Assembly (NCBI GenBank): GCA_029259155.1
Contig: JAPDJI010000020.1
Location: 1-64,000, forward strand
Direction of reading: 5' to 3'
Length of the DNA: 64,000 nucleotides
From: Candidatus Methanomethylicia archaeon
GTDB lineage: Archaea > Thermoproteota > Methanomethylicia > Nezhaarchaeales > B40-G2
In this document: positions 11,524 through 60,544 of the stretch, one piece after another
How positions within the stretch are numbered: position 1 is the first letter of the stretch
Layout of the letters: every line of letters starts with the position of its first letter
Position numbers and translations under genes: made by a program
Notes under the pieces: model-generated
Told to the model about the DNA's origin: nothing
What the model saw: the letters and a program-made list of their open reading frames with translations, nothing else
The model's database searches: none

Positions 11524-13334
11524 TCACCTCATAGAGGCTTTTGACCTAACCTCCTCGAGCTCTTGGAGAGCTTGAAGCTCATCTTCTGTAAGTTCTCCCT
11601 TATACTTGGAAAGAAGAAGCTTGACTTGATGTCCAGGGACATCCACGTAGAGGACGTCTCCCTCCTTAATCTGTCTACCAACCATCACATCTCCTTTGAT
11701 GGACACTGCCACAGCATACCCCTTCACCGCCTCGTCGACGGGTTTACCCTTATCCTGTATCTGCATTACTATTCCAACGCTTTTGCCGTCATCCTTAATG
11801 AGTGGGTAGCCAGGTCTTATCCGGCCTAACTGAACTTCCACGCCCACGATGGCTGGGTCACTTCTCCTGAATACGTAGCCTGGCAGGAGCTTTATCTTCC
11901 CAGGCCTTATGAGGGAGGCGAACTCTCTTCTACGCTCCTCCTCTCTTAGATGGCTTACCCATTTCTGATAGTCGTCGAAAACCCTGTAGATCACGTTGCT
12001 CCTAAAGACAGGGATCCCTCTCGACTTAATCTCCTCTTCAACCTCGGGCAAGGCCTTAACGTTGAAGGCCAAGATCACCCCCAGCGTCTTGTCCACGTCC
12101 CTAACTATGGAGGCCTCGATCACATCCCTCTTGGTAATAGGACCTACATCAGCCATCCTGATAGGTATACCTAACTCCCTGAGCTTACTAACCATAGCCT
12201 CGAGGGAGCCTAGCGTATCGGCCTTCACCACTACTCCTTCAGCTTCAGTCGAGAACCTTATGCTAGCCAGTTCCTCAATTAGAGTTTTCTTAAGTCCCTC
12301 GACCTCAGCCTCGCTCGAAGCAACTAGCAGAGGCGAGCCTGCTACTACTTCTCCTAAGCCGGGAGCTACGATTCTTACCCCGGCTGCGGCGTAAACCTTA
12401 TCCACCGACTTAAAGCGGTCTTCAGGATCCCTCATTTCATCTAAAGGCTTAGGGAGGAGGAGGGCTCTAACCCTCGTCACCACTGGGCCTGTTAACCCGC
12501 CGAGCACGATGATATCGTTGCGTTTAAGCACACCGTCATGTATGATGGCGTCAACCACCACACCTAGCCCAGGAAGCTCCCTGCACTCAAGCACAGCTCC
12601 CCTAGCTGGACCTTTAGAAACATGTAGCCTACCCATCATATACCTCTGTGTAAGCCCAGCCAGGACAAGGAGAAGGTCAGGGATACCTTCACCTGTTAGA
12701 GCGCTTGTAGGCACGATGGCAAGGGTCTTCGTGAAGTCCTTAACCCTATCATAACGCTCAGCGTTAAAGCCCTCATAGGAAAACTGCTCTACGATCCTAT
12801 AAGTCAACTCCTCAACTCTACGCTGAACCTCAGGGCTTTGAGCCTTAAAGGACTCGATGAAAGACGCATACTCACGCGGCTTCCACCCCAAGATGCGGTC
12901 TATCTTATTGGCCGCGACCACGAAGGGTACCCTACGCTCCTTAAGTATCCTTAAACTCTCATAGGTTATCTCCTCGAAGCCTTCAAGGATATCTATAACT
13001 AGGATAGCTATGTCAGCTATCGACCCTCCTCTCCTACGGAGGTTAACGAAAGCCTCATGACCAGGAGTATCTATCACTAAGAAGCCAGGTATCTTAATCT
13101 CTGCCTTAAACGCCTTGAGTAAAGGGCCACAGAGACGTTCAAGCGCTGTCCAAGGGAGGAAGGAAGCGCCTATATGCTGGGTTTACCATCCAGCAGGGCC
13201 CCCCGCTGGATCATGGCCCCAACCTCCCTGAACATGGTGGCCGTCCCCCTTATTTTATCGAGGAGAAGCGTTTTACCGACGTCCACGTGGCCCAGTACAC
13301 ATATGATAGGCGATCTGACGTACTCTTCAGTCAT
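11524..13334 (-). CDS. infB: Translation initiation factor aIF5B (IF2), two exons (13334-13212 and 13182-11524), 593 aa after splicing
   Basis: Exon 1 [22 protein letters not shown]...REVGAM, exon 2 TQHIGASF...IDTPGHEAF...NKID; frames join only when the 29-nt BHB insert is removed. Confidence 0.93.
13183..13211 (-). other. 29-nt BHB intron in infB pre-mRNA
   Basis: GUUGGG-GCCA-UG^A-UCCAGCGGG-GGGC-CCUGCUGGA-UGGU-AA^A-CCCAGC: 6-bp outer helix, 4-bp central helix, two 3-nt bulges, 9-bp inner helix. Confidence 0.9.
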
Positions 13335-13385
13335 TAGACCCCTCCTCCAAGCTACTTCTAGCGGCGCGTTTCATTAACTTTTGCC

Positions 13386-13832
13386 TTAACTAAGCCAGAA
13401 AGCATCAGCCCTATCGTAGCTATAGATCTCATTGTCCTTAAAGAACACCTTGATCTCGCGTTGAGCGCTCTCCAGAGAATCTGAGGCGTGGACTACGTTT
13501 TTAGTCAAAGATAGTCCAAGGTCCCCTCTAATGGTTCCTGGAGGAGAAGATTTAGGATCCGTTGAGCCGATTAGTCTCCTAACCACCTCGATGGCCTTCT
13601 CCCCCTCCACCACCATTGCGACTACGGGGGACGAGGTTATGTGAGAGACGAGGTCGTTGAAGAAAGCTTTACCTTTATGTACGCTATAGAGCTCCTCCGC
13701 CTCCTCCTTGCTAAGCCACTTCAGCTTGAGCCCAGCTATCTTTAGCCCTTTAGCCTCAACCCTCCTTATGACTTCACCGATCAATCCTCTGACTACACCG
13801 TCGGGCTTAACTAAGAGGAGGGTGCGCTCCAT
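13386..13832 (-). CDS. ndk: Nucleoside diphosphate kinase
   Basis: [27 protein letters not shown]. Confidence 0.97.
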
Positions 13833-13840
13833 GAGGCTTC

Positions 13841-14041
13841 CTACCTCCTACGAGCTTGAGCTTCCTCCCTGGTCTTCTTAGCCCACTTAATCTTGGCAGG
13901 CTTACGCCTCAACTTTAACATGTTCTTCCTACACTTACCGGAGCAGAAGAAGAATACAGTGCCATCCCTCTTCACATACATGATGCCTGTCCCAGGTTCT
14001 ATTGTAGCGTTGCAGAAGGAACACTTAGCTGCTCTAAGCAT
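13841..14041 (-). CDS. rpl24e: 50S ribosomal protein L24e
   Basis: CSFC..IEPGTG.MYVKRDG...FCSGKC; ATG at 14041. Confidence 0.95.
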
Positions 14042-14139
14042 TACAGGTCCCTCCCCACGTAAAGTAGAGCTTAGCTTTAAGTTTAGCTCGCCTCCATACA
14101 CGTAACGCTTAAATTCTTGCCTTTACCTCCACGCCTGGT

Positions 14140-14361
14140 ATGAGCAAAACTACTGGAGACGAGGCCACGCCGGCAGAGGTTGTCCAAATAATCGGTAGGA
14201 CAGGGGTTACAGGAGAGGTTATCCAGGTTAGGTGTCGTATACTTGAAGGTAGAGATAAAGGCAGGATTTTGACCCGGAACGTTAAGGGCCCTGTAAGGGT
14301 TGGAGATATACTGATGCTTAGAGAAACTGAGCGTGAAGCTAGGAAGCTAACGCCAAGGTAG
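14140..14361 (+). CDS. rps28e: 30S ribosomal protein S28e (opposite strand to neighbours)
   Basis: [18 protein letters not shown]...[22 protein letters not shown]. Confidence 0.96.
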
Positions 14362-14371
14362 ATTCCTTAGC

Positions 14372-14821
14372 TTACGACTTACGCTTCCTTCGTTTAGGTT
14401 TCTCCTCAGCCTCAGCAGGTGCAGCTTCCGCTTCCTCGCTAGGAGCACCTTTAACCCTGATCTCCTCCACCTTCTTCACGATCTCATCGATCAGTGACTT
14501 AGCTTCGCCCTCCTCCACTATGCAAGCAGAGGCAGCTTTAACCTCAATACCGCAAGCTTGCCCTAATCTATCCTTGCTTGGAACGTAGATGTAGGAGATC
14601 TTCTTCTCCTCGCAGAGGAGAGGTAGGTGAGCTACCACCTCTGGAGGGTCGACGTCCTCTGCGATGACCACCAGCTTAGCTAAGCCACGTTCCACTGCTT
14701 TCGTAGTCTCATTGGTGCCTTTCCTAACCTTCCCGGTGTCCTTAGCTATCCTCACTGCCTCGTATGCTTTCTCAGCTAAGTCCGAGGGAACCTCAAACCT
14801 TACATAGAAAGGTTTGGACAA
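14372..14821 (-). CDS. rpl7ae: Ribosomal/sRNP protein L7Ae
   Basis: [37 protein letters not shown]; charged C-terminal tail. Confidence 0.97.
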
Positions 14822-14828
14822 GATCTTA

Positions 14829-14860
14829 CGCCTCCTCTCACACTCATCAATTCATGGGCG
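14829..14860 (-). promoter_or_regulatory. Putative K-turn in rpl7ae 5' UTR overlapping the Shine-Dalgarno
   Basis: CGCC-CAU-GA-AUU...GAG-GA-GGCG: C-stem CGCC/GGCG, 3-nt bulge, tandem GA/AG; TATATA box at 14886-14891. Confidence 0.65.
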
Positions 14861-14960
14861 AGTAACGATATAGCGTTAAGCGGGGTATATATGCTTTCCC
14901 ACTCTTGCATAGGAAGGTTTTAGGTGTAGGGAGGACGAGTTCTCCGTAGAGGGTCTAAGA

Positions 14961-16694
14961 ATGGAACTTGACCTTAACGTTATACTAAGGAAACATGCTC
15001 TTAGAAACGCTATACTTCATGGAGGAAAAGCGGACGTCAACGCCGTGGTTAAGAAACTTCTCGCTGAGAGGCCTGAAGTAAGGTCTAGGTTGAGGGAGCT
15101 TATCGACGTGGTTAGAAAGACAGTCGACGAAGTCAACAGCTTAACGCTCGATGAGCAGCGAAGAATCTTGGAAGAAGAGTTCCCCGAGGTGTTGGAGAAG
15201 CCGGGAAAGGAAGAGAGGAAGTTACCTCCACTGCCCGCAGCGGAGGGCTTCGAGAAAGTGGTTACTAGGTTCGCTCCTGAACCTAATGGGTTTCTCCACT
15301 TAGGCCATGCTAAGGCAGCAGTGCTTTCTTACGAGTACGCTAAGATGTACGGCGGCACCTTCATCTTAAGGTTTGAAGACACCAACCCCAAAGCCGAGAA
15401 GGCCGAGTTCTATGAAGCGATAAAGGAAGACTTAAGAGCCTTAGGCCTTTCATGGGACGTGGAGAAGGTTGTTTCTGACGACATCGAGTTCATGTACGGC
15501 ATAGCCAAGTCTCTCCTAGAGAGAGGGCTTAGCTATGTTTGTATTTGTCCAACCAAGGAGCTTAGGGAGAAACGTAGGCGAGGAGAGGAGTGCGTTTGCC
15601 GGCACTCTAACGCGTCACGAAACCTAGAGCTATTTGACGGGATGCTTGAAGGAAAGTTTAGTGAAGGCGAAGCCGTGGTTAGGCTTAAGACAAGCATGAA
15701 GGCGAGGAACTATGCTCTCCGAGACCCTGTGATCTTGAGGATCATCGACTACCCACATCCTTTGAAAGGAGATAGATACCACGTTTACCCCACCTACGAC
15801 TTTGCATGTGCCGTTGAGGATCATGAACTACGTGTAAGCCACATCTTAAGGTCCATAGAGTTCGTAATGAGGGTAGACATCCAGGAGGAGATCTTCAAAG
15901 CCATGGGCTGGCCTATGCCCGTGGCCATACAGTTCGGTAGGCTTAACATGGAGGGGGTCCCACTGTCAAAGAGGAAGATAACGCCGTTGATAAAGGATGG
16001 ACTTGTAAAGGGATGGGATGACCCCCGCCTAGCTACCTTAAGAGGTCTGTGGAGGAGAGGAATACGCCCAGAGGCGGTGAAGAAGCTCATCCTAGATGTA
16101 GGACCAAGCAAAGCTAACGCCCTCATAACCTGGGAGCTGCTAAGCTCATACAATAGGAAGGTGGTGGACCCCATAGCTAATAGGTTCTTCTTCGTCCCCC
16201 ACCCGAAGTTAATGATCGTTTCAGGCACGCCTCCCATAAGCTCAGTGAAGATCAAGCTACACCCTAACTTCCCTGAGCGAGGCTTTAGGGAGCTACATGT
16301 CGATGGGTTGGGAGGAGAGGTTAAGGTCTTCGTTGATGGAGAGGAGGTCGCGCAGCTAGCTAAGCGCAAGTTTAGGTTGATAGGGCTCTTCAACGTGGAG
16401 GTCCAAGAAATAGAAGAAGTGGTACACGCCAGGTATGCCGGTGACGAACTCATAGATCCTAAGGTTCAGTGGGTTCCTGCCGAACGTAACGTTAAGGTAA
16501 GCTTAACCATCCCCACAAAGCTATTCCTAAACGGAGGAATAAACCTAGAGAGCTTAAAAGTGATGGATGGGCTCGGAGAAGAGACCTGCTCATCCTTAAA
16601 GCCGGGGGACCTCGTCCAGTTTGAGAGGATAGGCTTCGCCAGAATAGATGAGGTGGAAGATAAAGAAGTGAAAGCTATCCTCACTCACAGGTGA
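14961..16694 (+). CDS. gltX: Glutamyl-tRNA synthetase
   Basis: TRFAPEPNGFLHLGH, RFEDTNP, PTYDF, LSKRK, GWDDPRL, QFERIGF. Confidence 0.96.
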   Translation: MELDLNVILRKHALRNAILHGGKADVNAVVKKLLAERPEVRSRLRELIDVVRKTVDEVNSLTLDEQRRILEEEFPEVLEKPGKEERKLPPLPAAEGFEKVVTRFAPEPNGFLHLGHAKAAVLSYEYAKMYGGTFILRFEDTNPKAEKAEFYEAIKEDLRALGLSWDVEKVVSDDIEFMYGIAKSLLERGLSYVCICPTKELREKRRRGEECVCRHSNASRNLELFDGMLEGKFSEGEAVVRLKTSMKARNYALRDPVILRIIDYPHPLKGDRYHVYPTYDFACAVEDHELRVSHILRSIEFVMRVDIQEEIFKAMGWPMPVAIQFGRLNMEGVPLSKRKITPLIKDGLVKGWDDPRLATLRGLWRRGIRPEAVKKLILDVGPSKANALITWELLSSYNRKVVDPIANRFFFVPHPKLMIVSGTPPISSVKIKLHPNFPERGFRELHVDGLGGEVKVFVDGEEVAQLAKRKFRLIGLFNVEVQEIEEVVHARYAGDELIDPKVQWVPAERNVKVSLTIPTKLFLNGGINLESLKVMDGLGEETCSSLKPGDLVQFERIGFARIDEVEDKEVKAILTHR

Positions 16695-17793
16695 AAGCCC
16701 TAGCTCTACGCGTAGCCAATCTAGACACTTCTATCCCTCGTGCCCTCAACCACTCCGCGGTCCGCCCCGTAATCACCACGTCAGCTTTCTTGAGGTCCTC
16801 TACGCTACATGAACCTGTGAGGAACATCGCTAACCTAAGCTCCTCCATTATCCTCTCAAGAAACTCTATTACCGCCCATCCTCCAGCTAAAGCTGGCCTA
16901 AGGAGGGGTAAGGCCATTCCAGCCATGTCAGCCCCAAGCGAAAGGGCCTTGGCGGAGTCAAGGCCCGACCTAACACCTCCTGAACCTATAATGGGCAAAG
17001 ACGTGGCCTCCCTGACCTCTACGATGCTTACAGCTGTAGGAACACCCCAATCCCTAAACCTCATCCCTACGCTATGCTTCCTTTCATCACCATTGCTTAG
17101 GGCACGGTAAGCCTCGATAACAGCCCAGCTGGTACCTCCAGCCCCAGCCACGTCGATAGCTGAAACTCCAGCCTTCTCGAGAGCCATAGCTTCTTCACGC
17201 GCTATGCCGCTACCGGTCTCCTTAACTATCACAGGGACGCCTACGTTCTTAGAGAGCTCGTTGATGGACTCTAAGACCCTTTTAAACTTGGCTTCACCTT
17301 CAGGCTGCACTGCTTCTTGAAGAGGATTGAGGTGTACTGCTACTGCATTGGCTTCCACCATGTCTATTGCCTGTTTAACGAAGTCTAAGCCTTCACTCGT
17401 CAATTGCACCGCCCCAACGTTAGCAGCTATGAATACATCGGGAGCCACTTCTCTGACTGTCTTAAAGGAGGCCTTTAAGCCAGAGTCCTCTAACGCTGGC
17501 CTCTGACTGCCAAGCTCGAGGAGAAGGCCTAGATGTTGAGCAGCCTCAGCCAATGATCTATTAATAACAGCAGCTAGTTTAGGTCCCCCTGTCAACGCTG
17601 AGATGGTTAATGGAGCCTTAAACCTTCTCCCGAGAAAACGAACTTCCATAGACACCTCTTCTAAGTCTAGTTCAGGTATGCAGCGGTGTACGAGGTATAT
17701 ATCATCAAAGCCTGAGCGTAAACTGGCGGCTTCCACATCCTTTTCTAAACAAACCCAAATGTGTTCTAGCTTACGCCTACTTGAAACATCCAC
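16681..17793 (-). CDS. fni: Type 2 isopentenyl-diphosphate isomerase
   Basis: RKLEH, GSQR, HLNPLQE.VQPEG, KETG.G, AGAGGTSW. Confidence 0.95.
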   Translation of the reverse strand: MDVSSRRKLEHIWVCLEKDVEAASLRSGFDDIYLVHRCIPELDLEEVSMEVRFLGRRFKAPLTISALTGGPKLAAVINRSLAEAAQHLGLLLELGSQRPALEDSGLKASFKTVREVAPDVFIAANVGAVQLTSEGLDFVKQAIDMVEANAVAVHLNPLQEAVQPEGEAKFKRVLESINELSKNVGVPVIVKETGSGIAREEAMALEKAGVSAIDVAGAGGTSWAVIEAYRALSNGDERKHSVGMRFRDWGVPTAVSIVEVREATSLPIIGSGGVRSGLDSAKALSLGADMAGMALPLLRPALAGGWAVIEFLERIMEELRLAMFLTGSCSVEDLKKADVVITGRTAEWLRARGIEVSRLATRRARAFTCE

Positions 17794-18639
17794 TTAAACC
17801 ACCATTAATGAAGCGTAGCCTACCACAGAGGAGTAGTCCTTAGTTACGTCACCGGAAGTGGCATACTTAAGTAGCTCAGCCTTAGAGGCTCCAAAGCTTA
17901 AGCTGGCTATTATCATGGAGGCTACGGGGCCATAACCACACATAGAGATAGCCTCACGCTCCACCACCTCTATCAAGCCTTTAGCGTCCATCTTCAAGAT
18001 GGCTTCGATGGCCATCCTATCCTTTGCCTCAGCTGACCTCTGACTTTCATAGTGTGTAAAGTCCGTGGACGCTATCACCACCACGTTTCTCCCAGCAGCA
18101 GCGCTCGCTATGGCCCTCCCAACGTCTATGCATGCTTCGTAAGCTTGGATCATCATGCATATAGGCACTATCTTAACCTTCTCCCCGTAGATGTAGGTGA
18201 GGAAAGGTAGCTGAACCTCGATGGAGTGTTCGTTTAGGTGGGCTTCCTCATCCACCGATATTAAGCTAGCTGCTCCTTGGATCCTTGAGGCCAGCTCAGT
18301 GTCTATTTCAACCTCTCCTAGTGGGCAGCTCCAAGAGCCATCCACCATTATTGATATACCTGCCCCCCAGCCTGTATGGTTAGGCCCTATGATAATCGCT
18401 GTGTCCGGGATTCCGTCTTCAGCAAGCGCCAAGTAGGCTTGAGCGGCTACAGGCCCTGAATACATGAGGCCTGCGTGAGGCACCACTAGTCCCTTAATTC
18501 TCCGAGGGCCTTCTTTCTCCACCTTAGGAAGCTTGCCTGGACCTAAAGAGCTGAGGAAGCAGTGTTCAATTCTCTTTTTAAGGGCGTCGGGGTCAGCCTC
18601 ATAGAAATAGCCAGCTACAGCAGGCCTTCTAACTCCCAT
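17794..18639 (-). CDS. MEMO1-family protein
   Basis: RRPAVAGYFY, PHAG.MYSG, GPNH, EHSIEVQLPF, STDFTHY, MCGYGP. Confidence 0.92.
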   Translation of the reverse strand: MGVRRPAVAGYFYEADPDALKKRIEHCFLSSLGPGKLPKVEKEGPRRIKGLVVPHAGLMYSGPVAAQAYLALAEDGIPDTAIIIGPNHTGWGAGISIMVDGSWSCPLGEVEIDTELASRIQGAASLISVDEEAHLNEHSIEVQLPFLTYIYGEKVKIVPICMMIQAYEACIDVGRAIASAAAGRNVVVIASTDFTHYESQRSAEAKDRMAIEAILKMDAKGLIEVVEREAISMCGYGPVASMIIASLSFGASKAELLKYATSGDVTKDYSSVVGYASLMVV

Positions 18640-18648
18640 CTAGACCCC

Positions 18649-19296: not shown

Positions 19297-19341
19297 GTCA
19301 ACCAGCCGCTAAGGCAAGCCGGATCCTTTAATAGTTAACGG

Positions 19342-20653: not shown

Positions 20654-20857
20654 TCAGTAGCTAGGCCTCTTAAACTTTAACACTTCATCTATGGCTTCTA
20701 TGTGGCTAATGAGCATCCTCCTACAGCAATACCTTGTCACTCCTAGGTCATCGAGAACTTTACCTGGCGCTTCCCCTTCCTTAACCCTTCGGCTGAACTC
20801 CTCCCAGAGGTGGCCTATGGGCCTACCGCAAGTAAAACACCTTACAGGTATTATCAC
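20654..20857 (-). CDS. rpo10: RNA polymerase subunit Rpo10 (RpoN)
   Basis: [10 protein letters not shown]...RYCCRRM. Confidence 0.97.
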
Positions 20858-20896
20858 GTTAACTCACCTCCTACTCTCTCCTTCTCCACAAGGAAG

Positions 20897-21350
20897 TTAC
20901 CGGAAGTTACCTATAGCTATTGCATCCAACCCTGTACTGAAAAACGTCCGTATAGCGTCTTGAGGCGTAAGGACTATGGGCTTACCTTTATCATTAAATG
21001 AGGTGTTCAGCACTACCGGTATTGATTTCTCCGACTCGAAGTTTTCGATCAGCTTATAGTACTTAGGGTTTACGTCGCGCTCAAGGATCTGCGGCCGAAC
21101 CGTGCCATCTACATGGTTCGTTGCAATAATCTCCTTCAGCTTACCATCTCTAACCTTTAAGCTGAATAGCATAAACCTAACTAAGAAGAAGACCTCTAAA
21201 TATTCTTTAGCTGCCCTATTAAGCATGGTTTGGGCGAAAACCCTCCAAGGCTCCCTATGCTTAACCTCGTTGTTCACCTTATCTTTCATTGAAGATAGCC
21301 ATGGTCTGCAAGAATACTCCTATTCCCCAGAGCTCTCTAGGATACTCGAA
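20897..21350 (-). pseudogene. NodU/CmcH-family carbamoyltransferase, C-terminal remnant
   Basis: Frameshifted RALGNRSILAD followed by VKHREPWR, HVDGTVRPQ, VLNTSFN..GKPIV.TP.DA. Confidence 0.85.
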
Positions 21351-21703
21351 ATTAACTGGCACTTCACAAGGCCAGCCTTTAAGCCACGGCTTAACACTCA
21401 AAGACCCCCCAAGCCAAGCAAAACAAAGCCAACTTTAAAACCCCACACCACCCAAAGCCCTAAAAGGCCCTATGACTGAGCTCGCCCTCAGAGATGGAAG
21501 GGCGGTGCGCAATTACGAACTTAATCGTCACGTACGCTTAAAATGCCCATTAAGGGGCGGCCTTTTTTCTTACGCCTGCAGCACCTCTAGGTGTGTTTAA
21601 GACAGCAAAGGTTTATCAAGCCATTACTCCTCGGGCCTCCTTAATCTTCGTCGATGAGGGCTTTAACTTTAAAGAAGGTATGTGCGAGGTGCGTGGAGGG
21701 AGC

Positions 21704-27829: not shown

Positions 27830-27933
27830 TCCCGCCTTAACCCCTTCCTTGCAGGGAGGGAAGAAGGGGGGATGTTAATAAAGCCTTTCCTACATGCGGA
27901 GCTAGGCGTCCATCACCAGGTACAAACTAGGTA

Positions 27934-28037
27934 CGCCGGGGGTGGGACTTGAACCCACGAGGCCCGTAAAGGACCATAGGCTATACGGGGGACGCCTCTC
28001 CAGGCCTACCCCTTCGACCTATCTCGGGCACCCCGGC
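27934..28037 (-). tRNA. tRNA-Ser(GGA) with 15-nt intron at 37/38 (27997-27983)
   Basis: Acceptor GCCGGGG/CCCCGGC, G73, long variable arm, anticodon stem TAGGC/GCCTA; relaxed BHB (C.U mismatch in the central helix). Confidence 0.92.
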
Positions 28038-28070
28038 ATGATGGAGAGCCGCTCAGCTTCATATAAAGCT

Positions 28071-29071
28071 TTACGTCGTTTTACTCTTCCTCCATAGAGG
28101 AGGGTAAGTCCCAGGCTCCATGATCACCCTAGTGGTCCTAGCCACTAAGCCATGTTCAGCCTCTAAAATCTCCTCCGCTGACATTAAGGCTGAGGCTAAC
28201 GCTACTAACTCCCCTTTCTGGGTCATCAACGCTACTTCAGAGCCTTTCTTGATATCGCTCGTTAACCTTAGTACTCCTGGGGCGGCTAAGCTAGCGCCGT
28301 GACATATGGCGTCAACCGCCGTGTCTCTAACCACTATCTTAGGTACTTCCTCCACAACCTTCTCCATAGGCTGCACAGCCCTCCTAAGCCAAGCCTCGTC
28401 TCCGGTCTCCCTCCATAGATCATAGGCATCTTTAAGGTCGTGAAGGGTAACCAGCGTAGAATCCTCTTTAAAGGAGCCGCTTCGCGTACGTCTAAGCTCC
28501 TTCATGTGAGCCCCCACGCCAAGTATGAGGCCTATATCGTGGCAAAGCTTCCTGACATAAGTCCCGGCTTCACAGTGTACTTGCATGAGCACGAGGTTTC
28601 CTTGAACCTCCAGTACTTTAAGTTCGTAGATACGCCTAACCCTAAGCCTCCTCTTCACCGAGGCTCTCAGAGGAGGTTTCTGGTAGATAGGGCCTGTAAA
28701 CTCGCTGCAAACCTTCTTGACTTGGTCTTCGGGGACTGCTCCATGAAGCTGCATCAAGCAGATGTACTCCTTGGACACCTTGGACATCAACCAGAGCAGC
28801 TTCCTAGCTTTATTAAGGGCTATGGGCAGGATCCCTGTAACCTTAGGATAACCCCGCCTCCTCGATGAGGCTCTAGGGTCCCTCCATGCCCAGCCCTCTC
28901 CACACCCAATATTCGCTTAACCCAAGCGGTCACTTCATGGCTAGTTGGGCCAGGAGGCTTATCCAGGTTAATGACCCCTTTCTCCAAGTGCTGCTGGATG
29001 GTCCTCTCCTCAGGTCTACAACCATAATCCCAGAGAGGCTCCTCCTCATCTTTAACCAAGTACTCGTGCAT
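28071..29071 (-). CDS. cbf5: H/ACA pseudouridine synthase Cbf5, two exons (29071-28873 and 28849-28071), 325 aa after splicing
   Basis: DKPPGPTSHE, GHGGTL-D-PKVTG restored by removing 23 nt, GTYVR, PUA domain. Confidence 0.95.
28850..28872 (-). other. 23-nt BHB intron in cbf5 pre-mRNA splitting the catalytic Asp codon
   Basis: GGGA-CCCU-AG^A-GCCUC-AUCGAG-GAGGC-GGGG-UU^A-UCCU; the join gives G+AU = Asp. Confidence 0.93.
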
Positions 29072-29121
29072 CGATGCACCCTGCGAAAAGACATGAAGCT
29101 GCTTGATAAGCTTTAGCTTCA

Positions 29122-29406
29122 CTAAGCCAGTTGAGGTTTAACCTTAACCTTCATGAAGTTCAGCTTACCCTCAGCCTCCAACGCCCGCTTAACCTCGTCG
29201 TCAGAAGCTCCCTTTGAAACCTTAACCGTGTCCTCGAGGGGTATAAGGTGCTTAATGTTAGCCCTTCTACGCTTAACTCCACTGATCTCCTTAGGCCCAG
29301 TGACCAACGCGAAGTTGTCATCTATTAAGTCAACTATCACGCACTTTAACCCAGCTTCACGCCCCGTCGTCTTGACGCAAATCCTACCCACCTCGATCGA
29401 CGGCAA
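29122..29406 (-). CDS. rpl14e: 50S ribosomal protein L14e
   Basis: EVGRICVKTTGREAG.KCVIVD, GVKRRR.NIKHL. Confidence 0.95.
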   Translation of the reverse strand: MPSIEVGRICVKTTGREAGLKCVIVDLIDDNFALVTGPKEISGVKRRRANIKHLIPLEDTVKVSKGASDDEVKRALEAEGKLNFMKVKVKPQLA

Positions 29407-30824: not shown

Positions 30825-32246
30825 TTACCTTCCTAATATTTTTTCAAGCATCGGGTACATCTCCATGGCCTGCTCCCTCGCTATAATCTCATAGTACTGG
30901 TAAAGTATCTCAACCGTTAATAAAATACCTATCCCTGAGCCGATGGCACCTAGGAGGTCAGCGAAGGCAGCCAGCAAACCTATGAAGAGGCCGCTTATGA
31001 TGGTTAGCGAAGACACGTAGCGCTGAAGCAGCTTCTCTAAGATCTTGGGTGACTGCCTAAAGCCAGGCACCTGGAGCCCAGCTCTAACCAGCTGTTCCGC
31101 TTGATCTTTAGCCGACATACCCGAGGACTCCACCCAGGCGATGGCGAAGAACACGCATAGCAGGCAAAGCATTACCGTGTATATCAGTACATGGATCGCA
31201 CCTTCAGGGCTCTGAAGAGCGATCAAGCCCCTCGGAGGCGATAGGTAGTAGACCAGCCCTCCCATAGGGACAGGGCCTCTATCAGTCATGTTAAACGTGC
31301 CCAAGAGGTTTAAGATAGGGTTGGTGTTGGTTGGGTTCCACTTAGACCACACTATTTGGCTTATCACTTGAAGGTTAGCGTAGAGCGCTCCAGCCAGGAT
31401 GACTGGGATGTTTGAGACGTAGAGGAACTTTAAGGGTACATTAGCCCTGATACCGCCATACCTAGTAAAGGAGACAGGCACCTCAACCCTAACCGTCTCA
31501 AAGTAGAGGACGATAAAGAGCACAGCCAACATGGCTAAGAAGCCAGTCATATCAGGGAAGGGGTAACGGTTGAAGCTACTCAACACGTCTCCACGTAGAA
31601 TTGAGTGGCCAAACGCTAGTATAGCTCCTAGAGGTTCACCTCCACGCTCAGGCACCGCTAGCGGAGAGAAAAGCCCCCAGAAAACATGTTGAGAAACACC
31701 AGCCGCTATGAAAAGGCTCACTCCACTACCGAGCCCCCAACCCGCCTGAACCATTTCATCAAGCAGGATTATCACGATGCCAGCGGCGAAGAGCTGAAGG
31801 AAAACCGCCACCTGGTTGCTGGGAGTCATAGGGCCGAAGAAGCCGGCGATTATGAAGACGAAGGCCTCGACTGCCGTCACTATGATAGATAGCAGCTTCT
31901 GAGCGCCGGTGAACAGCGCCCTCTCATGGGGGTCCGAGAGATCGATCTCCAGGAGCCTAGAGCCTACTAGAAGCTGCATGATTAAGCCGGCCGTCACGAT
32001 AGGGCCTATGCCCAGCTGCATGAGAGTGCCGTTCCTAGCAGCGAAGATAATGTTCATGAACAAGAACTCTGCCAGTCGGCCGCGCTCCGCTATCCCGAAG
32101 AGAGGGACCTGGCACATGATGAAGTATATGGTCAGCACCATGCCTGTCCAGAACAGCTTAGTCCTGAAACTAACCCTGCGTTTAGGCCTCTTTACCTCAG
32201 GGAGGAAGCGTAAGGTGGGTTCAATGAGCTCTAATGCTTTAGCCAT
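30825..32246 (-). CDS. secY: Preprotein translocase SecY
   Basis: LGIGPIVTAGLIMQLL, GSGVSLFI, YVSNIPVIL, PGFR. Confidence 0.97.
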   Translation of the reverse strand: MAKALELIEPTLRFLPEVKRPKRRVSFRTKLFWTGMVLTIYFIMCQVPLFGIAERGRLAEFLFMNIIFAARNGTLMQLGIGPIVTAGLIMQLLVGSRLLEIDLSDPHERALFTGAQKLLSIIVTAVEAFVFIIAGFFGPMTPSNQVAVFLQLFAAGIVIILLDEMVQAGWGLGSGVSLFIAAGVSQHVFWGLFSPLAVPERGGEPLGAILAFGHSILRGDVLSSFNRYPFPDMTGFLAMLAVLFIVLYFETVRVEVPVSFTRYGGIRANVPLKFLYVSNIPVILAGALYANLQVISQIVWSKWNPTNTNPILNLLGTFNMTDRGPVPMGGLVYYLSPPRGLIALQSPEGAIHVLIYTVMLCLLCVFFAIAWVESSGMSAKDQAEQLVRAGLQVPGFRQSPKILEKLLQRYVSSLTIISGLFIGLLAAFADLLGAIGSGIGILLTVEILYQYYEIIAREQAMEMYPMLEKILGR

Positions 32247-46996: not shown

Positions 46997-47127
46997 GCCA
47001 GCCCATAGAAGAGGGCCACGAACGGGTGGTGTAGGGGTTAACACAACGGCCTGTGGAGCCGTGGATCCCGGGTTCGAGACAGTCTTCCCCATAAAGGGGG
47101 GCTGCGAGAATCCCGGCCCGGGCCCCA
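46997..47127 (+). tRNA. tRNA-His(GTG) with two non-canonical introns (3/4: 47000-47022; 59/60: 47079-47110), CCA encoded
   Basis: Spliced product: GCCCGGG-TG-GTGT...ACAC-A-ACGGC-CT-GTG-GA-GCCGT-GGATC-CCGGG-TTCGAGT-CCCGG-CCCGGGC-C-CCA; both inserts form strict BHBs. Confidence 0.9.
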
Positions 47128-51147: not shown

Positions 51148-51163
51148 CTGGAGGAGGTAGGCT

Positions 51164-51794: not shown

Positions 51795-51809
51795 GCAGGA
51801 GAGGCTGAG

Positions 51810-52718: not shown

Positions 52719-52736
52719 GTGAGAAGCTTGGTAAAC

Positions 52737-53660: not shown

Positions 53661-54508
53661 TGATGGCTTTGAAGCTGATAGTTACATCGTCAAAAGACCC
53701 CGCCAGCTTAAACATCAAAAGAGCCTTAATGGACTTGGTAGACTTCAAGGAATCGAGCTTAAACTTTGACGGAGCCCCGATCATGTTCCGTGGCGACGTA
53801 GCCCTAGTCACTGTAGACAAGGAGCTCATCCACGCCGACCACATAGACGGATTACTAGACGCTGAGCTCGCGGTCTTCGCGTCAAGACATGAATCCTCAT
53901 CCAAGCTACCATCGCTCCTAACACACATCCCAGGTAACTGGACCTTGAAGGCTGAGGCTGGAGGTAAGCCCAAGAGCCTATGCAGAGCTTGCCCCAGCGT
54001 TCTAAAGGAGACCCTCCTAGAACTAGAAGCTCAGCGCAGGAGGCTTGGGCTACACGAATGGCTATGCGGTGTAGAGGCAACCCATCATGGACCTTACCTA
54101 GAGAAAACTCCAGCTATCTTCGTAGAGATAGGTAGCAGTGAGGAGGAATGGTTAAACAAGACAGCAGCCATAGCGGTCGCTAACGCCATATTGAAAGCTG
54201 TGTCAAGCAAAGTTAGCTACAGGCCGTTACTCTGCTTTGGAGGAACACACTATGCTCCAAAGTTCACTAAGCTCATGTTGGAGACGGCATGGACAGCTGC
54301 ATACATAGCTCCTAAGTATGTCGTAGATGAGCTTGACGAAGCTATTCTAGCACACGCTCTTCAACGCAGCTGCGAGACAGTAGAGGCCGCTGCCTTAGAC
54401 TGGAAAGGGCTTAAAGGAGCTCAAAGGGAAGCTTTAATAAAGCTGCTGAGTAAGGTAGGGTTGAAGGTATGTAAGGCTGATGAGCTTTTTGAGCGAGAAG
54501 GTATATAA
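53660..54508 (+). CDS. dtdA: D-aminoacyl-tRNA deacylase (archaeal DTD2)
   Basis: SRH.S, H.PGN, EATHHGP, FVEIGS, GGTHY, DWK. Confidence 0.92.
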   Translation: MMALKLIVTSSKDPASLNIKRALMDLVDFKESSLNFDGAPIMFRGDVALVTVDKELIHADHIDGLLDAELAVFASRHESSSKLPSLLTHIPGNWTLKAEAGGKPKSLCRACPSVLKETLLELEAQRRRLGLHEWLCGVEATHHGPYLEKTPAIFVEIGSSEEEWLNKTAAIAVANAILKAVSSKVSYRPLLCFGGTHYAPKFTKLMLETAWTAAYIAPKYVVDELDEAILAHALQRSCETVEAAALDWKGLKGAQREALIKLLSKVGLKVCKADELFEREGI

Positions 54509-54549
54509 AGTGCGCCTTCAATAGGCGTGTGGACCTCATAAGGTAGGCG

Positions 54550-54735
54550 GTGCTAATGAGGATACGCAGCTTCATCGAGGATACTATGCGCGTACTAAGG
54601 GTAGTGAGGAAACCAAGCCGCTCTGAGTACTGGGTATTGTTCCGCGTATGCGTGCTCGGCATGACAGTGATAGGTATCTATGGTTTCCTCATACTCTACC
54701 TCTCAACTATCATCGCCGCAGCCGTAGGGCTCTAG
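54550..54735 (+). CDS. secE: Protein translocase SecE / Sec61 gamma
   Basis: RVLRVVRKP...EY followed by one TM. Confidence 0.92.
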   Translation: MLMRIRSFIEDTMRVLRVVRKPSRSEYWVLFRVCVLGMTVIGIYGFLILYLSTIIAAAVGL

Positions 54736-54749
54736 CAAGGTGATAGGGG

Positions 54750-55223
54750 TTGTCGCTAAGGACTGGGGAGTTTCTATACCTTGTGAGGACAACGGTGGGC
54801 CAGGAGAGAAACGTCATGTTCATAGCTGAGGGAAGGATCGAGAGGGAGGGACTCCCTATACGGTCATTAGTGTGTATCGAAACCCTTAGAGGCTACGTGC
54901 TAGCTGAGGCAGACGCTCCTCATTATGTTGAGAAGGCCTTCTCCAACATTAAACATGTGAAGGGGGTTTCATTAAGAAAAATCAGCTTATCTGATCTCGA
55001 AGTCTTCCTGGTACCTAAACCAGCCATTGAGGGCATAGAGGTCGACGACATCGTGGAGATCACCGGAGGGCCCTTTAGAGGAATGAAAGGCCGAATAGTT
55101 AGGGTAGATAAAAGCAAAGAAGAGGTAACCCTGGAGCTTCTCGAAGCCCCCTACGCCCTACCTATAACCGTGCACGCCGATTACGTCAGGGTCAGCGAGA
55201 AAGCTTCAAGGAGGGCTGGCTGA
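54750..55223 (+). CDS. spt5: Transcription elongation factor Spt5
   Basis: TTVGQE, GYVLAE, KOW GPFRG. Confidence 0.95.
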   Translation: MSLRTGEFLYLVRTTVGQERNVMFIAEGRIEREGLPIRSLVCIETLRGYVLAEADAPHYVEKAFSNIKHVKGVSLRKISLSDLEVFLVPKPAIEGIEVDDIVEITGGPFRGMKGRIVRVDKSKEEVTLELLEAPYALPITVHADYVRVSEKASRRAG

Positions 55224-55714
55224 TGGGCGTCAAGAAAACCTTCAAGTTCATCATAGAGGGCGGTAGAGCCACTGCAGGCCCCCCTATAGGGCCAGCTTTA
55301 GGCCCATTAGGGCTTAACTTAATGGAGGTGGTCAACAACATAAACGAAGCCACCAAGGACTTCGCTGGTATGAGAGTACCCGTAGAGGTCGAGGTGGACG
55401 TAGACGAGAAGGCCTTCCAGGTGAAGGTAGGTATACCCACCACGACCGCGTTGATAGCTAAAGAACTAAAGGTGGAAAAAGGCTCCTCCAAGCCTGGCAG
55501 CGAGAAGGTAGGAGACCTGACCATGGAGCAGCTCGTCAAGATAGCTAAGATAAAACGTCCAGGGCTACTAGCCAAGACGTTTAAGGCAGCGGTAAAAGAG
55601 GTCTTGGGCACGTGCCTTAGCATGGGGGTCACGGTCGAAGGGAAGAATCCAAAGGTGGTCCAGAGGGAGATAGATCAAGGCCTTTACGACGAGCTATTAA
55701 AGGAGGAAGATTAA
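55223..55714 (+). CDS. rpl11: 50S ribosomal protein L11
   Basis: GG.AT.GPPIGPALGP, GTC.SMG. Confidence 0.97.
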   Translation: MGVKKTFKFIIEGGRATAGPPIGPALGPLGLNLMEVVNNINEATKDFAGMRVPVEVEVDVDEKAFQVKVGIPTTTALIAKELKVEKGSSKPGSEKVGDLTMEQLVKIAKIKRPGLLAKTFKAAVKEVLGTCLSMGVTVEGKNPKVVQREIDQGLYDELLKEED

Positions 55715-55715
55715 G

Positions 55716-56384
55716 GTGAGCGTAGAGCTGGAAGCTTTAAAGGTAGCCATAGAAGAGGCTAAGAAGCTCGCCAAGGCTAGGAGGTTCAAGCAGTCCGTGG
55801 ACCTTATCATCAGTTACAGCGACCTCTCGACGAAGCAGCCAGAGGCAAAGATAAACGAAACCATAGAGCTGCCCCACGTCTCACCTGAGAGGAAGGCTAA
55901 GGTATGCGTCATAGCTGAAGGAGATCTAGCCATTAAGGCCAAGGAGGCAGCCGACGCTGTGATAGGGAAGGAGGAGCTGAATAAAGCTCAAGGTGACCGT
56001 AAATATGCACGTAGTTTAGCTAGGAACTTTAACTTCTTCATAGCCCAGGTCGACCTCATGCCCCTCATAGGTAGGTCCCTGGGACCAGTACTAGGGCCTA
56101 GAGGCAAGATGCCTACACCTTTACCTGGCACCGCTGACCCCATCCCATTGATCAGGAAGCTTCAAAACTCCGTTAGGGTCAGGATCAAAGACAGCCCTGT
56201 AGTGCAGTGCTCCATCGGGAGTGAAGACATGCCTGTGGATCAGCTAGCTGAGAACGCTAAGACCCTAATAGAAAGCGTAGAGGATAGGCTTAAGGTCCCC
56301 CACCATATTGGAGGAGTCTTCGTGAAGCTTTCCATGGGGCCAGCCGTGCCTGTCAAGATAGAGAAAAGGAGGAAGGCGGCTTGA
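55716..56384 (+). CDS. rpl1: 50S ribosomal protein L1
   Basis: F.QSVD, LGPRGKMP, KLSMGP. Confidence 0.96.
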   Translation: MSVELEALKVAIEEAKKLAKARRFKQSVDLIISYSDLSTKQPEAKINETIELPHVSPERKAKVCVIAEGDLAIKAKEAADAVIGKEELNKAQGDRKYARSLARNFNFFIAQVDLMPLIGRSLGPVLGPRGKMPTPLPGTADPIPLIRKLQNSVRVRIKDSPVVQCSIGSEDMPVDQLAENAKTLIESVEDRLKVPHHIGGVFVKLSMGPAVPVKIEKRRKAA

Positions 56385-57253
56385 AAACCCTAAGTTTCCA
56401 GGTTTCTCCTAGGGCAAGGAAAGAAGCCTTGGTTAAGACCTTGATGGACCTACTGGAAAAATATAGAGTCGTAGCCATAGCCGACGTAACAGGGCTACGC
56501 GCAAACCAGTTTCAGAGGCTGAGGATGAAGCTGAGAGGTATAGCGGAGGTGAAGATGGCCAAGAACACCTTGATGAGGATAGCCATAGAGAGGCTCCTCG
56601 ATAAGAAACCTGAGCTGAAAAAGCTAGCTGAGTATTTGACAGGGTCTAACGCCTTCGTCTTCACTAATGAAAGCGCCTTCGCACTCTACATGCTTCTGGA
56701 GCGCAACAAGGTGTCAGCTAAGGCTAAACCTGGCGATAAAGCCTCAAAGGACATATACATACCGGCGGGCAACACAGGACTCCCCCCTGGACCTATTCTG
56801 AGCATGTTCAAGATGCTAAAGGTACCCACGAGGATAGAGGAAGGATCCATCTACGTGTCTAAGGACACCTTGGTCCTTAAAAAAGGAGAAGTTATTTCCA
56901 GAGAAGCCGCCGACTTACTGTCGAAGCTTGGCATAGAACCCATTGAGGTAGGGTTAAAGGTGAAGACGGCTTACGAAGACGGCTTAATCTTGACAGAGCA
57001 GGACCTAGCCTTAGACCTAGAGGCATACAAGGGTCAGCTTGCTGAAGCATACTCTAATGCTTTAAGGTTGAGCATAGCTGTAACCTATCCAACCGTCGAC
57101 AACGCTGAGCTGCTCCTAGCTAAGGCACAGAGCGAAGCCTGGAACCTAGCGGTTAACGCAGCTCTACCAGTCAAGGAGGCAGTAGAGATGCTGCTTCAAC
57201 GAGCTGAGGCGGAGGCAAGAGCCCTTGAAGCCATCTTGCCTAAAGCTTCCTAA
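56381..57253 (+). CDS. rpl10: 50S ribosomal protein L10 (P0)
   Basis: KNTL, PAGNTG.PPGP, LGIEP. Confidence 0.95.
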   Translation: MKTLSFQVSPRARKEALVKTLMDLLEKYRVVAIADVTGLRANQFQRLRMKLRGIAEVKMAKNTLMRIAIERLLDKKPELKKLAEYLTGSNAFVFTNESAFALYMLLERNKVSAKAKPGDKASKDIYIPAGNTGLPPGPILSMFKMLKVPTRIEEGSIYVSKDTLVLKKGEVISREAADLLSKLGIEPIEVGLKVKTAYEDGLILTEQDLALDLEAYKGQLAEAYSNALRLSIAVTYPTVDNAELLLAKAQSEAWNLAVNAALPVKEAVEMLLQRAEAEARALEAILPKAS

Positions 57254-57310
57254 CGTTTATAAGGGAGGCACTACCCCTAGTGTCGACAACCCCCCTTGGA
57301 GAGGGTGACT

Positions 57311-57640
57311 ATGGAATACGTTTATGCAGCTCTGCTCCTACATCATGCAAAGAAAGGAATAACAGAGGAAGGGCTCAAGAGCATTTTAGAGTCTGCTGGC
57401 GTAGAGGTTGATGAAGTTAGAGTTAAGGCGCTGGTGGCAGCCCTAAAGGAGGTTAACATAGACGAGGCTATCAAAGCTGCAGCCCTACCGGTAGTTGCAC
57501 CTGCAGCTGTGGCTGCTGGTACCGCTCCTGCTACCCAGCCTTCAGGAGCTCCAGCAGAAGAAGAAAAGAAAGAAGAGGAGAAGAAAGAGGAAGTCTCAGA
57601 GGAGACCATGGCTGAGGGGCTTAGTGCCCTCTTCGGTTAA
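57311..57640 (+). CDS. rpl12: 50S ribosomal protein L12 (P1)
   Basis: [11 protein letters not shown], Ala hinge, acidic tail, GLSALFG. Confidence 0.96.
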
Positions 57641-57693
57641 CGTTGCATGTTTAAAACCCATCTACCTAAACCATAGCCACGAAGGCCTCTACT

Positions 57694-60416
57694 ATGCCCG
57701 GCCGAGAAGAGGACTATAGGTTAACGTTCTTCTTGGAAAATGGATTTGTACGTAGAAGATGTAGTAGGTGTGGGACCTATTTCTGGACTTTAGACCCTGA
57801 TCGACAGGACTGCGGCGATGCTCCGTGCATGAAGTACATGTTTATAGGCAACCCCCCTCTACGTAAGCCTTACACCCTAGCTGAGATGCGTAAAGCTTTC
57901 TTAAGCTTCTTCGAGAAGCATGGACACACCGTTATCAACCCCTACCCCGTGGTAGCTAGGTGGAGGGAAGACCTTTACTTAACCATAGCTAGCGTAGCTC
58001 TCTTCCAACCCTTCGTAACGGAAGGCGTAGTGCCTCCTCCAGCTAACCCTCTCGTAGTGTCGCAGCCTTGCATAAGGCTCCTGGACATAGACCGTGTAGG
58101 GGCAACCGCTGGGAGACATCTAACCATCTTCGAGATGGGTGGTGCACATGCCTTTAACTATGAGCATGATTGGAAGTATTGGAAGGACCGTACCGTGGAG
58201 CTATGCCACCTCTTCCTGACCGAGGAGCTGGGGCTTAAACCTGAGCTAGTGACCTATAAAGAAGACTTCTGGGAGGGGGGCGGCAACGCTGGGCCTGACG
58301 TTGAAGCTTGTGTTGAAGGACTAGAACTAGCCACGCTAGTTTTCATGACGTACCGTGTGAAAAATGGAACTTACGAAGAAATGCCCGTTAAAGTAGTGGA
58401 TACGGGCTACGGCATAGAGAGGTTTACTTGGGCCTCCACCGGCCATCCTACAGCGTTCCACTCGATCTATGGTTCCTTGCTCGACCGATTCATGGACTCC
58501 CTAGGGGTAAAAGAAGTAATAGACTGGAGGATAGTAGCAGACGCGGTTAAGGAGCTCTCCTCATTACCCGTAGAGGAGGGGTTAAAGCCCGAAGTTAGAG
58601 CTAAAACAGCGGTTAAGCTAGGTGTAGAGGCTAACCAGCTAGAAGCGATGCTCAAGGCAGCGGAGAGAGCCTGCGCGCTGCTTGACCACACCAAATGCTT
58701 GGCCTTCATGTTAACTGACGGCGTAGTGCCATCTAACACTGGTGAAGGATACTTAGCAAGGCTAGTGCTTCGTAGAGCCCTTAGGCTACTTAGGGCTCTA
58801 AAAGTGGAGGTTAGGCTGGGCGACTTAGTAGCCTGGCAACTCGAATACTGGAGCCGAGATTACCCGAGGCTTATGGAAAGAGCCGACATTGTGTTGGAGG
58901 AGGTAGAGCTTGAAGAAAAACGCTATGAAGAGACTTTATCGAGAGGTAGCAGGCTTATTGAACGTAGCTTAAAGGAGCTGGCTAAAGGAGGCGTAGAGGT
59001 GCTCTTAGAGCTCTACGACTCCCATGGCATACCGCCGGAACTCGTCAGTGAAGTAGCGAGGGAAAAGGGCGTAGAGGTGCAGGTTCCAGGAGACTTTTAC
59101 ACCATGGTGGCAAAGCTGCATGAAAAGCCTAAGCTTCAAGCAGAAGTTGCTAAAGTCGATCTATCGGAGCTTCAAGGAATACCTTCCACGAAACTACTAT
59201 TCTACGAGAACCCCTACTTGATGAGGTTTAAGGCCAAAGTACTCAAATGCCCAGCTGGATGGGTGGTCCTCGACGCTACATGCTTCTACCCTGAAGGAGG
59301 AGGGCAGCCCTCGGATCAGGGCTATCTACGCTTCAACGGTAAGGAGGTTCAGGTCGTAGAGGTTGTTAAGGAGGGCGACGTGGTCCTCCATAAGGTGGAA
59401 GGCAAGGTTCCTGAAGGCATAGAGGTGGAAGGCGTTGTAGATGAAAAACGTAGATTAAGCTTGATGAGACATCACACAGCCACCCATATCATCGTAGGAG
59501 CAGCTAGACAGCTCCTAGGAGACCATGTATGGCAAGCCGGCGCTCAGAAAGGAGTAGACCGAAGCAGGATCGATTTAACCTTCCACCGCAGGATCACGAA
59601 AGAGGAGCTAAGGGAGATAGAGAGGATCGCAAACGAGGTAGTGATGAAAGGTCTACCGGTGAAGGCTGAGTTCATGAAGAGGGAGGAAGCCGAAGCCCTT
59701 TACGGCTTAGTTCTATACCAGGGAGGCGTAGTTCCAGGAAGATACATCAGGGTCGTGGACATCGCTGGCTGGAATGCACAGGCATGCGGCGGCACCCACG
59801 TCACCTCTACAGGCGAGGTAGGTCCCATCAAAATTGTGAGAGCATATAGGATACAGGATGGCGTGGAGAGGATCGAGTTCACCGCTGGTCTAAGCGCCTA
59901 GACTACATGCAGCAGACGGAGGAGCAGCTGAGGAAAGTGGCGGAGACTCTTCAAGTACCTACCGAGAAAGTGGTCGAGGCGGTTGAACAAGTTAAGGAAG
60001 AGCTTAAGGTAGCTAGGAAAACCATAGAGAAGTCGAGGGAGAAGCTAGCCTCATACATAGCCTCGTCGCTCTTAGAATCAGCTGAACACGTAGGTAAGGT
60101 TGTCTATGTGGGATATAAGGGGCGCGAGGAAGAGGCTGAGGACTTGATCAAGATAGGAGAGGAGGTTGTTAAGAAGGAGCCTTTAGCCGTATGCGTCCTC
60201 ATCGCAGGGACGGAGAGAGCTTTAGTAGTAGTGATGTCTGGCCCAGAGGCCGTAAAGGTAGGAGCCCACGCAGGTAAGCTAGCACGTATAGCCTCAGAAG
60301 CTCTTGGAGGCAAAGGAGGAGGGAGAGAGAGCCTAGGGCAAGGTGGAGGGCCTAGGCCTGAAAAGGTCGAAGAAGCGTTGAGACAAGTTAAAGAGGCTCT
60401 AGCAGCGCTCAGCTAA
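57694..60416 (+). CDS. alaS: Alanyl-tRNA synthetase, broken by an apparent 1-nt deletion at about 59898 (ORFs 57694-59901 and 59907-60416)
   Basis: GRHLT.FEM, GYGIER, HHTATH and CGGTH editing motifs; C-Ala domain (GGKGGG) continues in the -1 frame as ...SA-LDYMQQ. Confidence 0.9.
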
Positions 60417-60441
60417 TTAAGCTCCTCTCTATCACTAAAGC

Positions 60442-60544
60442 GGGCCCGTAGCGCAGCACGGACACATATGCCGTGAAGCGCGGCGGCCTTCTATACATCG
60501 TTGAGGAAAGCCGTCGGTCCCGGGTTCAAATCCCGGCGGGCCCG
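60442..60544 (+). tRNA. tRNA-Arg(TCT) with two introns (D-loop about 20a/21: 60464-60476; 37/38: 60494-60508)
   Basis: GGGCCCG/CGGGCCC, G73, A20; central helices ACGG/CCGT and CTTC/GAGG with 3-nt bulges. Confidence 0.92.

Follow-up and report, generated by a model that had tools for sequence, protein, structure and literature searches.

Two genes of the translation apparatus in a 64,000-nucleotide (nt) stretch of archaeal DNA, infB (encoding aIF5B) and cbf5, each lie in two reading frames separated by a short insert. This locus raises the question of whether the inserts are introns of the bulge-helix-bulge (BHB) type, which would be removed by the tRNA splicing endonuclease, and of how much of the genome depends on such splicing. 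The stretch, referred to here as the window, is C2:1-64000 in the assembly of an uncultured archaeon (G000; 1.55 Mb, 47 contigs, 94% complete). A preliminary description of the window had counted seven BHB introns, one each in infB, tRNA-Ser and cbf5 and two each in tRNA-His and tRNA-Arg, and had raised the possibility of a genome-wide regime of mRNA splicing. All seven introns are present, with the sites and sizes that it gave. On comparative grounds we put the probability at about 0.85 that these are genuine archaeal BHB introns, that three such introns in this genome interrupt protein genes of the translation apparatus (aIF5B, Cbf5 and, outside the window, uS5), and that they are spliced. 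A broad genome-wide regime is not supported by our scans.

The archaeal origin of the DNA is evident from Pfam matches to reverse gyrase, archaeal ribosomal proteins, aIF2-gamma, RNase P protein subunits and SecY. The closest named relatives of its aIF5B come from metagenome genomes labeled "uncultured Nitrososphaerota archaeon" (82% identity) and "Candidatus Nezhaarchaeales archaeon" (77%), and DNA of this organism is contained in hydrothermal-vent and sediment metagenomes. For comparison we used a set of 41 genomes (the source genome and 40 relatives), 15 of which belong to its own order.

The infB gene is divided as follows.

13334..13212, minus strand: infB exon 1, 41 codons, with the P-loop GHVDVGKT and ending ...EVGAM (Pfam GTP_EFTU, profile positions 4-34)
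13211..13183, minus strand: infB intron, 29 nt, with a canonical hBHBh' motif supported by covariation, kept in independent metagenome contigs
13182..11524, minus strand: infB exon 2, 552 codons, beginning TQHIGAS (Pfam GTP_EFTU positions 61-184, D2, IF-2 and D4)

The GTPase domain of aIF5B is thus split by Pfam between the exons, with the P-loop part in exon 1 and the remainder in exon 2. The motif consists of an outer helix of 6 base pairs (bp; gttggg/cccagc), a central helix GCCA/TGGT, bulges TGA and AAA, and an inner helix of 9 bp. Our rule for placing the cuts, after the second base of each bulge, was taken from the canonical 37/38 intron of tRNA-Arg in the window; applied to infB, the canonical cuts remove exactly 29 nt and leave a single open frame of 593 codons. 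The exon share of the motif falls on the codons V-G-A-M and T-Q-H, and the 5′ exon end is conserved. The preliminary description held that this intron sits at or next to a key functional codon. The intron does directly precede the Thr codon of TQHIGAS, the presumed switch-I residue of aIF5B.

Relatives carry inserts at the same site. In the searched genomes 19 of 30 infB loci are interrupted, comprising all 15 genomes of the order and four of another family (f5), and among 72 loci in named public genomes 12 are interrupted, 57 are uninterrupted and three are unreadable. Insert lengths across relatives are 22, 27, 29, 30, 31 and 33 nt. The inserts of 30 and 33 nt are multiples of three and cause no shift of frame, and most of these have in-frame stop codons. 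Among 21 distinct sequences, pairing holds in 94.1% of the cells of the proposed helices, compared with 31-38% when the partner column is slid. Eight of the nine inner-helix pairs have changed on both sides, and the observed covariation score is reached in 0 of 500 shuffles. Lineages that lack the intron mostly read EPG or EAG before the site, as opposed to EVG. Family f5 holds both states: L165, L167, L168 and L171 have an infB intron of 22 or 27 nt and L169 and L172 have none, with a near-identical exon protein (EVGAM / TQHIGAS) throughout. By this pattern, presence or absence within the family is the outcome of a recent gain or loss, and the infB intron is dispensable, since L169 and L172 read EVGAM without it.

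Both mRNA introns of the window are also seen in other data. Contigs from four other public metagenome runs hold the pair, and two long independent metagenome contigs span the infB and cbf5 introns without any insertion or deletion (indel). In one strain (run X5, depth 5), one base of a G/C run in the infB intron loop, at window position 13199, is absent, giving an intron of 28 nt; at such depth this is possibly an error. A deletion of 1 nt in the loop would be harmless only if the intron is removed.

The second interrupted gene of the window is cbf5.

29122..28873, minus strand: cbf5 exon 1, with the DKCLD domain (Pfam), ending ...GHGGTL and the first letter of an Asp codon; its start codon is uncertain
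28872..28850, minus strand: cbf5 intron, 23 nt, inserted after the first letter of the catalytic Asp codon
28849..28071, minus strand: cbf5 exon 2, with part of TruB_N, TruB_C_2 and PUA (Pfam)

The joined frame has 342 codons. Here the motif has an outer helix of 4 bp (ggga/tcct), a central helix CCCT/GGGG, bulges AGA and TTA, again cut after their second base, and an inner helix of 5 bp (gcctc/gaggc). The cut register, ...cta g before the intron and at cct after it, yields the Asp of GTLDP, which is the register of the cbf5 intron family. An intron at the catalytic Asp codon had been claimed for this gene; it splits that codon, at a position that matches the one given in PMC2738675. The exons of both infB and cbf5 lie in different frames, which bears out the earlier statement that both mRNA introns shift the frame. 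Within the class to which the source genome belongs, the cbf5 site is interrupted in 26 of 30 loci.

The third case lies outside the window and was the best candidate by codon score in a genome-wide scan for motifs that join frames.

G000:C13:32002-32029: uS5 intron, 28 nt

At the exon junction the predicted protein reads ...VQKQTD followed by AGELSRFKV..., and relatives without an insert have VQKQTDAGExSRFKV at this place. In Pfam, exon 2 is matched by Ribosomal_S5, beginning at profile position 17, and by S5_C. The outer helix has 3 bp and the inner helix 8 bp, and the exon share of the motif consists of the Q-T and A-G codons. Among 30 uS5 loci, 14 carry an insert of 22-34 nt (the source genome and families f1 and f3), 15 carry none, and one, from a family of the same order (G004), was not matched by our search pattern, yet has an open frame of 228 codons and lacks the intron. 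Of the three families that make up the order, two have this intron. In the 14 interrupted sequences 98.1% of cells are paired, seven pairs show changes in both partners, and the observed score is attained by 0 of 500 shuffles. At one central-helix pair the exon has changed synonymously from ACG to ACA, and the intron carries the matching change. Only one copy each of infB, uS5 and cbf5 was found in the source genome. Taken together, the comparative evidence for infB and uS5 as two further cases of BHB introns in protein genes is strong.

The 5′ end of uS5 has a peculiarity of its own. From the upstream stop to the conserved W-V-P-K-T of exon 1 (C13 ~31800-31850; L075:497-545) there is no ATG, GTG or TTG except the GTG of that Val. 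In the source genome and its nearest relative (L084), TAG ACG stands a few bases behind a GGAGGTG box, and in L083 an ATG in the frame one base earlier is followed by a stop after 12 codons. Exon 1 may begin at an unusual start codon or involve a further recoding event.

The machinery that such introns would need is encoded in the genome. Two EndA-family genes are present (two Pfam tRNA_int_endo matches). One, the alpha subunit of 183 amino acids encoded on C1, matches the catalytic subunit of A. pernix over its full length (3p1z_B, 2.6e-53), and in a gapless alignment its Lys39 and Lys41 line up with K44 and R46, residues of the Crenarchaea-specific loop. The second, of 209 amino acids, has Gly opposite the catalytic His of the M. 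kandleri construct and a weak match to structural subunits. With two genes, a loop lysine in alpha and Gly at the catalytic His in the other, the endonuclease is therefore of the (αβ)2 type. RtcB (1.3e-178) and Archease (8.2e-46) are encoded as well. The loop is described in PMC3241643, which names its residues, as giving the endonuclease broad specificity, and according to PMC5829648 non-canonical introns are cut only by endonucleases of the (αβ)2 and ε2 types. The preliminary description had linked such introns to broad-specificity endonucleases of the heteromeric or epsilon type and asked for the subunit type; alpha and beta genes with the Crenarchaea-specific loop are what the genome holds. 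The gene for the structural subunit (L074, G000:C6:35961-39218) lies directly upstream of a same-strand open reading frame (ORF) of 432 amino acids, a putative histidyl-tRNA synthetase as read by eye. In Haloferax, endA is paired with the tRNA synthetase gene trpS1 (PMC7714728).

The same enzyme would process the tRNA introns of the window, which occur in three genes.

27933..28038, minus strand: tRNA-Ser(GGA), with a 15-nt intron at 27997..27983 in the canonical 37/38 position (ARAGORN -i)
46997..47127, plus strand: tRNA-His(GTG), with two introns, one of 23 nt at 47000-47022, which separates positions 3 and 4 of the acceptor stem, and one of 32 nt at 47079-47110 in the T loop
60442..60544, plus strand: tRNA-Arg(TCT), with a 13-nt intron at 60464-60476 in the D loop and a 15-nt intron at 60494-60508 at 37/38 (Rfam tRNA match, 48.2 bits)

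Two 3-nt bulges around a 4-bp helix are found exactly in the infB, cbf5 and uS5 introns and in both introns of tRNA-His and of tRNA-Arg. The tRNA-Ser intron has one C.U mismatch in its central helix (read by hand), a relaxed motif that a strict scan misses. In tRNA-His the outer and inner helices have 7 and 4 bp for the 23-nt intron, whose outer helix draws on the 5′ leader, and 5 and 9 bp for the 32-nt intron. In tRNA-Arg they are weak, with 2 and 2 bp flanking the 13-nt intron and 7 and 1 bp flanking the 15-nt intron. ARAGORN calls a 76-nt tRNA-His, starting at 46997, only with both introns removed, and a 76-nt tRNA-Arg only once both of its introns are removed; Rfam finds a fragment of tRNA-His alone (24.7 bits, 47020-47076). 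With default tools the window yields three tRNAs (ARAGORN without the intron option) or four (Rfam at gathering scores). Genome-wide, 13 of 41 ARAGORN calls bear introns, some of them doubtful. A 38-nt intron at the 5′ end of tRNA-His was considered and rejected, since the 23-nt BHB intron between positions 3 and 4 yields a proper acceptor stem. The base before G1 of this tRNA (46996) is T, and the gene does not encode the additional G-1 characteristic of tRNA-His; the CCA after the discriminator base is encoded in the DNA (47125-47127).

How far does splicing of this kind extend to other protein genes? Our strict motif required outer and inner helices of at least 3 bp and an insert of 11-150 nt. 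It matches 16154 times in the genome, and 10801 of these inserts are not a multiple of three. Since the bare motif is this common, the motif alone proves nothing, and support for an intron comes from exact restoration of a frame or a tRNA together with covariation in relatives. In 426 cases a strict motif connects two frames that are each 50 codons or longer; with the 3′ cut displaced by one base the figure is 373, which is no enrichment. A relaxed scan gave 51056 motifs, 531 of them joining frames with coding-like flanks and 16 remaining after a compactness filter. When the demand for an inner helix was dropped there were 65666 motifs, 244 joining frames, and 66 of these had no start signal; among the junction peptides of those 66, skimmed without a homology check, infB alone stood out. 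Candidates at C3:23669, C38:2600 (a VapB/VapC pair), C5:10653, C6:61404, C21:13186, C1:14344, C2:67456-67490, C2:75088-75118, C12:37613-37635, C2:114353-114379 and C8:3270-3292 were set aside as gene boundaries, antisense frames or read-through frames. The whole-genome search for motif and frame thus leaves three genes, and with 426 frame-joining motifs against 373 in the control, the genome-wide regime put forward earlier is not supported. The strict thresholds recover two of the five tRNA introns of the window and are blind to relaxed motifs, to introns longer than 150 nt and to in-frame introns lacking a stop. Because of this insensitivity, three interrupted protein genes is a lower bound.

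It had also been supposed that other genes annotated as frameshifted may be spliced. This turned out to be right once, for uS5 on C13, where motif, frame and covariation agree, and wrong for a moaC-like gene outside the window (G000:C2:107037-107089). There, ...AAKRT lies in one frame and TEIIPLCHPIPITAVKVSF in the next, a plain 1-nt frameshift that rules the gene out as a case of an intron. Two further broken genes lie inside the window. The alanyl-tRNA synthetase gene (59860-59940) is in two frames: an ORF of 735 codons stops at 59899-59901 and an ORF with the DHHA1 domain starts at 59907, its frame being open upstream of its ATG (...KRLDY before Met), as it would be after a 1-nt frameshift. 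A BHB intron would not fit into so small a gap. The break may reflect a genuine split of the gene, a frameshift or a fault in the assembly. At 20897-21319, on the minus strand, a lone C-terminal carbamoyltransferase piece (Carbam_trans_C, profile positions 38-166) has no N-terminal part upstream and looks like a decaying remnant; in other metagenomes the region 20700-21700 has several strain indels (20873, 20892, 21405 and 21562).

For the three protein genes we propose the following path. In the pre-mRNA, the exon sequences flanking the intron would pair with each other to form the outer helix, the end of the 5′ exon would pair with the 3′ end of the intron as the 4-bp central helix, and the body of the intron would fold into a hairpin. 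The (αβ)2 endonuclease would then cut after the second base of each 3-nt bulge, and RtcB would join the exons with the help of Archease. An open frame would exist only in the spliced RNA. The geometry of the motif, restoration of the frame, conservation of the site, compensatory changes and the presence of the enzyme genes are shown; that the cell cuts and ligates these RNAs is what we infer. Splicing would most likely be constitutive. On this view, the persistence of the introns would be explained by invariant codons, which make up the exon half of the motif and would keep the substrate from decaying.

A number of results weigh against this account. None of the 16 listed runs that hold this DNA is on record as RNA. 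The minimum-energy fold of the infB region from RNAfold has pairing slightly off the BHB register. The strict motif is missed by a mismatch at three of the 19 interrupted infB loci (L150, L154 and L156), is not fitted at two of the 14 interrupted uS5 loci (L085 and L086), and fits just six of the 26 interrupted cbf5 loci of relatives. Compact motifs number 147 in the genome and 106-122 in shuffled genomes, so they are scarcely enriched. Constitutive splicing, and persistence by way of conserved codons, are extrapolated from only three cases.

The alternatives differ in what becomes of the insert. It could stay in the RNA, with the ribosome shifting frame or hopping over the hairpin by programmed frameshifting or bypassing, and a stable hairpin does lie between the two frames; such genes were at one time classed as frameshifted by van Passel et al., as mentioned in PMC2738675. 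However, many inserts at the infB site have in-frame stops, and no single ribosomal shift fits, because their lengths vary among relatives (the six lengths given above). What is conserved, placed precisely where the exons end, is the pair of 3-nt bulges with the 4-bp helix; this is a signature of the endonuclease and not a slippery site. We consider recoding of this kind highly improbable. Less probable still is that the inserts are assembly or sequencing artefacts or that the genes are decaying pseudogenes. The assembly is indeed fragmented and incomplete, and real plain frameshifts do occur in it, as in the moaC-like gene, but the same inserts are present in the four other public runs and in dozens of other assemblies, the interrupted genes are single-copy and essential, and both exons have coding-type codon usage.

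A different alternative accepts splicing and makes it regulatory. If splicing of the aIF5B, uS5 and Cbf5 mRNAs were rate-limiting, translation output would follow the EndA/RtcB capacity that many tRNAs need as well. Several features are in keeping with such coupling: the three interrupted genes all act in translation or ribosome biogenesis; the introns fall in the first third of the frame, after codon 41 of 593 in infB, 83 of 342 in cbf5 and ~64 of ~207 in uS5; at least 13 of the 41 ARAGORN tRNA calls have introns, with tRNA-His and tRNA-Arg(TCT) needing two cuts each; and the introns are kept across an order. Three genes are, however, below the size of a regulon. The infB intron is missing from L169 and L172, which have the same exon protein, and the uS5 intron from the family of G004, and because of these lineages the introns are dispensable. 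We therefore regard coupling as unlikely. The same low standing applies to its extension, in which the mRNA introns would form a small splicing-dependent checkpoint, with synthesis of the initiation factor aIF5B, the small-subunit protein uS5 and Cbf5, which is the rRNA/tRNA pseudouridine synthase, gated by the tRNA endonuclease-ligase pair and the output of ribosomes and factors following tRNA supply, and in which BHB introns inside ORFs would be regular in Thermoproteota genomes annotated as frameshifted; we offer it as speculation. Constitutive splicing of BHB introns is the reading that we prefer.

Under that reading, mRNA splicing of the tRNA type would be less rare in archaea than thought, the Cbf5 intron being the only one previously known, and the splicing of protein genes by tRNA machinery would be recurring rather than a one-off. 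Since 2002, cbf5 has stood in the literature as the sole archaeal coding sequence with an intron of the endonuclease type. As of 2009, PMC2738675 states that pre-mRNA splicing was confirmed for no archaeal gene besides cbf5, and in 2020 PMC7714728 presents cbf5 as the only such mRNA intron besides the reported one in a 5′ untranslated region. The reference list of PMC12397907 (2025) includes the cbf5 intron papers. Among the titles and abstract openings listed from the open-access literature there was no report of an intron in infB (aIF5B) or uS5, and among those listed on archaeal pre-mRNA splicing no protein-gene intron besides cbf5; no open-access literature linking Nezhaarchaeota with introns was found. 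There are practical consequences. Annotation pipelines will label these essential genes as broken, which distorts both the estimated completeness of genomes from these lineages and the gene trees built for them. In addition, introns of 22-33 nt are natural minimal substrates for asking how a broad-specificity endonuclease finds its mRNA targets, possibly while ribosomes are already translating them.

Three known systems place these introns. The non-canonical tRNA introns of Thermoproteota, as described in PMC3241643 and PMC5829648, likewise occur several per tRNA, in the D loop, the T loop and the acceptor stem, in hosts having a two-subunit endonuclease with a loop lysine, and the five tRNA introns of the window are ordinary members of that kind. 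The known cbf5 pre-mRNA intron of Crenarchaeota (Watanabe et al. 2002; Yokobori et al. 2009, PMC2738675) has the same site in the Asp codon, a BHB motif inside a reading frame, a length of only tens of nt and hosts with a heteromeric endonuclease; by site, register and motif, the cbf5 intron of the window is a member of that family. The table in PMC2738675 gives no cbf5 intron for Thermoproteales, two thaumarchaea and Korarchaeum, whereas one is present here in a Nezhaarchaeales-like lineage. Finally, the 5′ untranslated region of HVO_1309 in Haloferax volcanii contains a BHB intron, reported in PMC7714728, which is likewise an mRNA substrate of the tRNA splicing endonuclease. That intron, however, lies in an untranslated leader and in a host with a different EndA type, whereas the introns described here break the reading frame itself.

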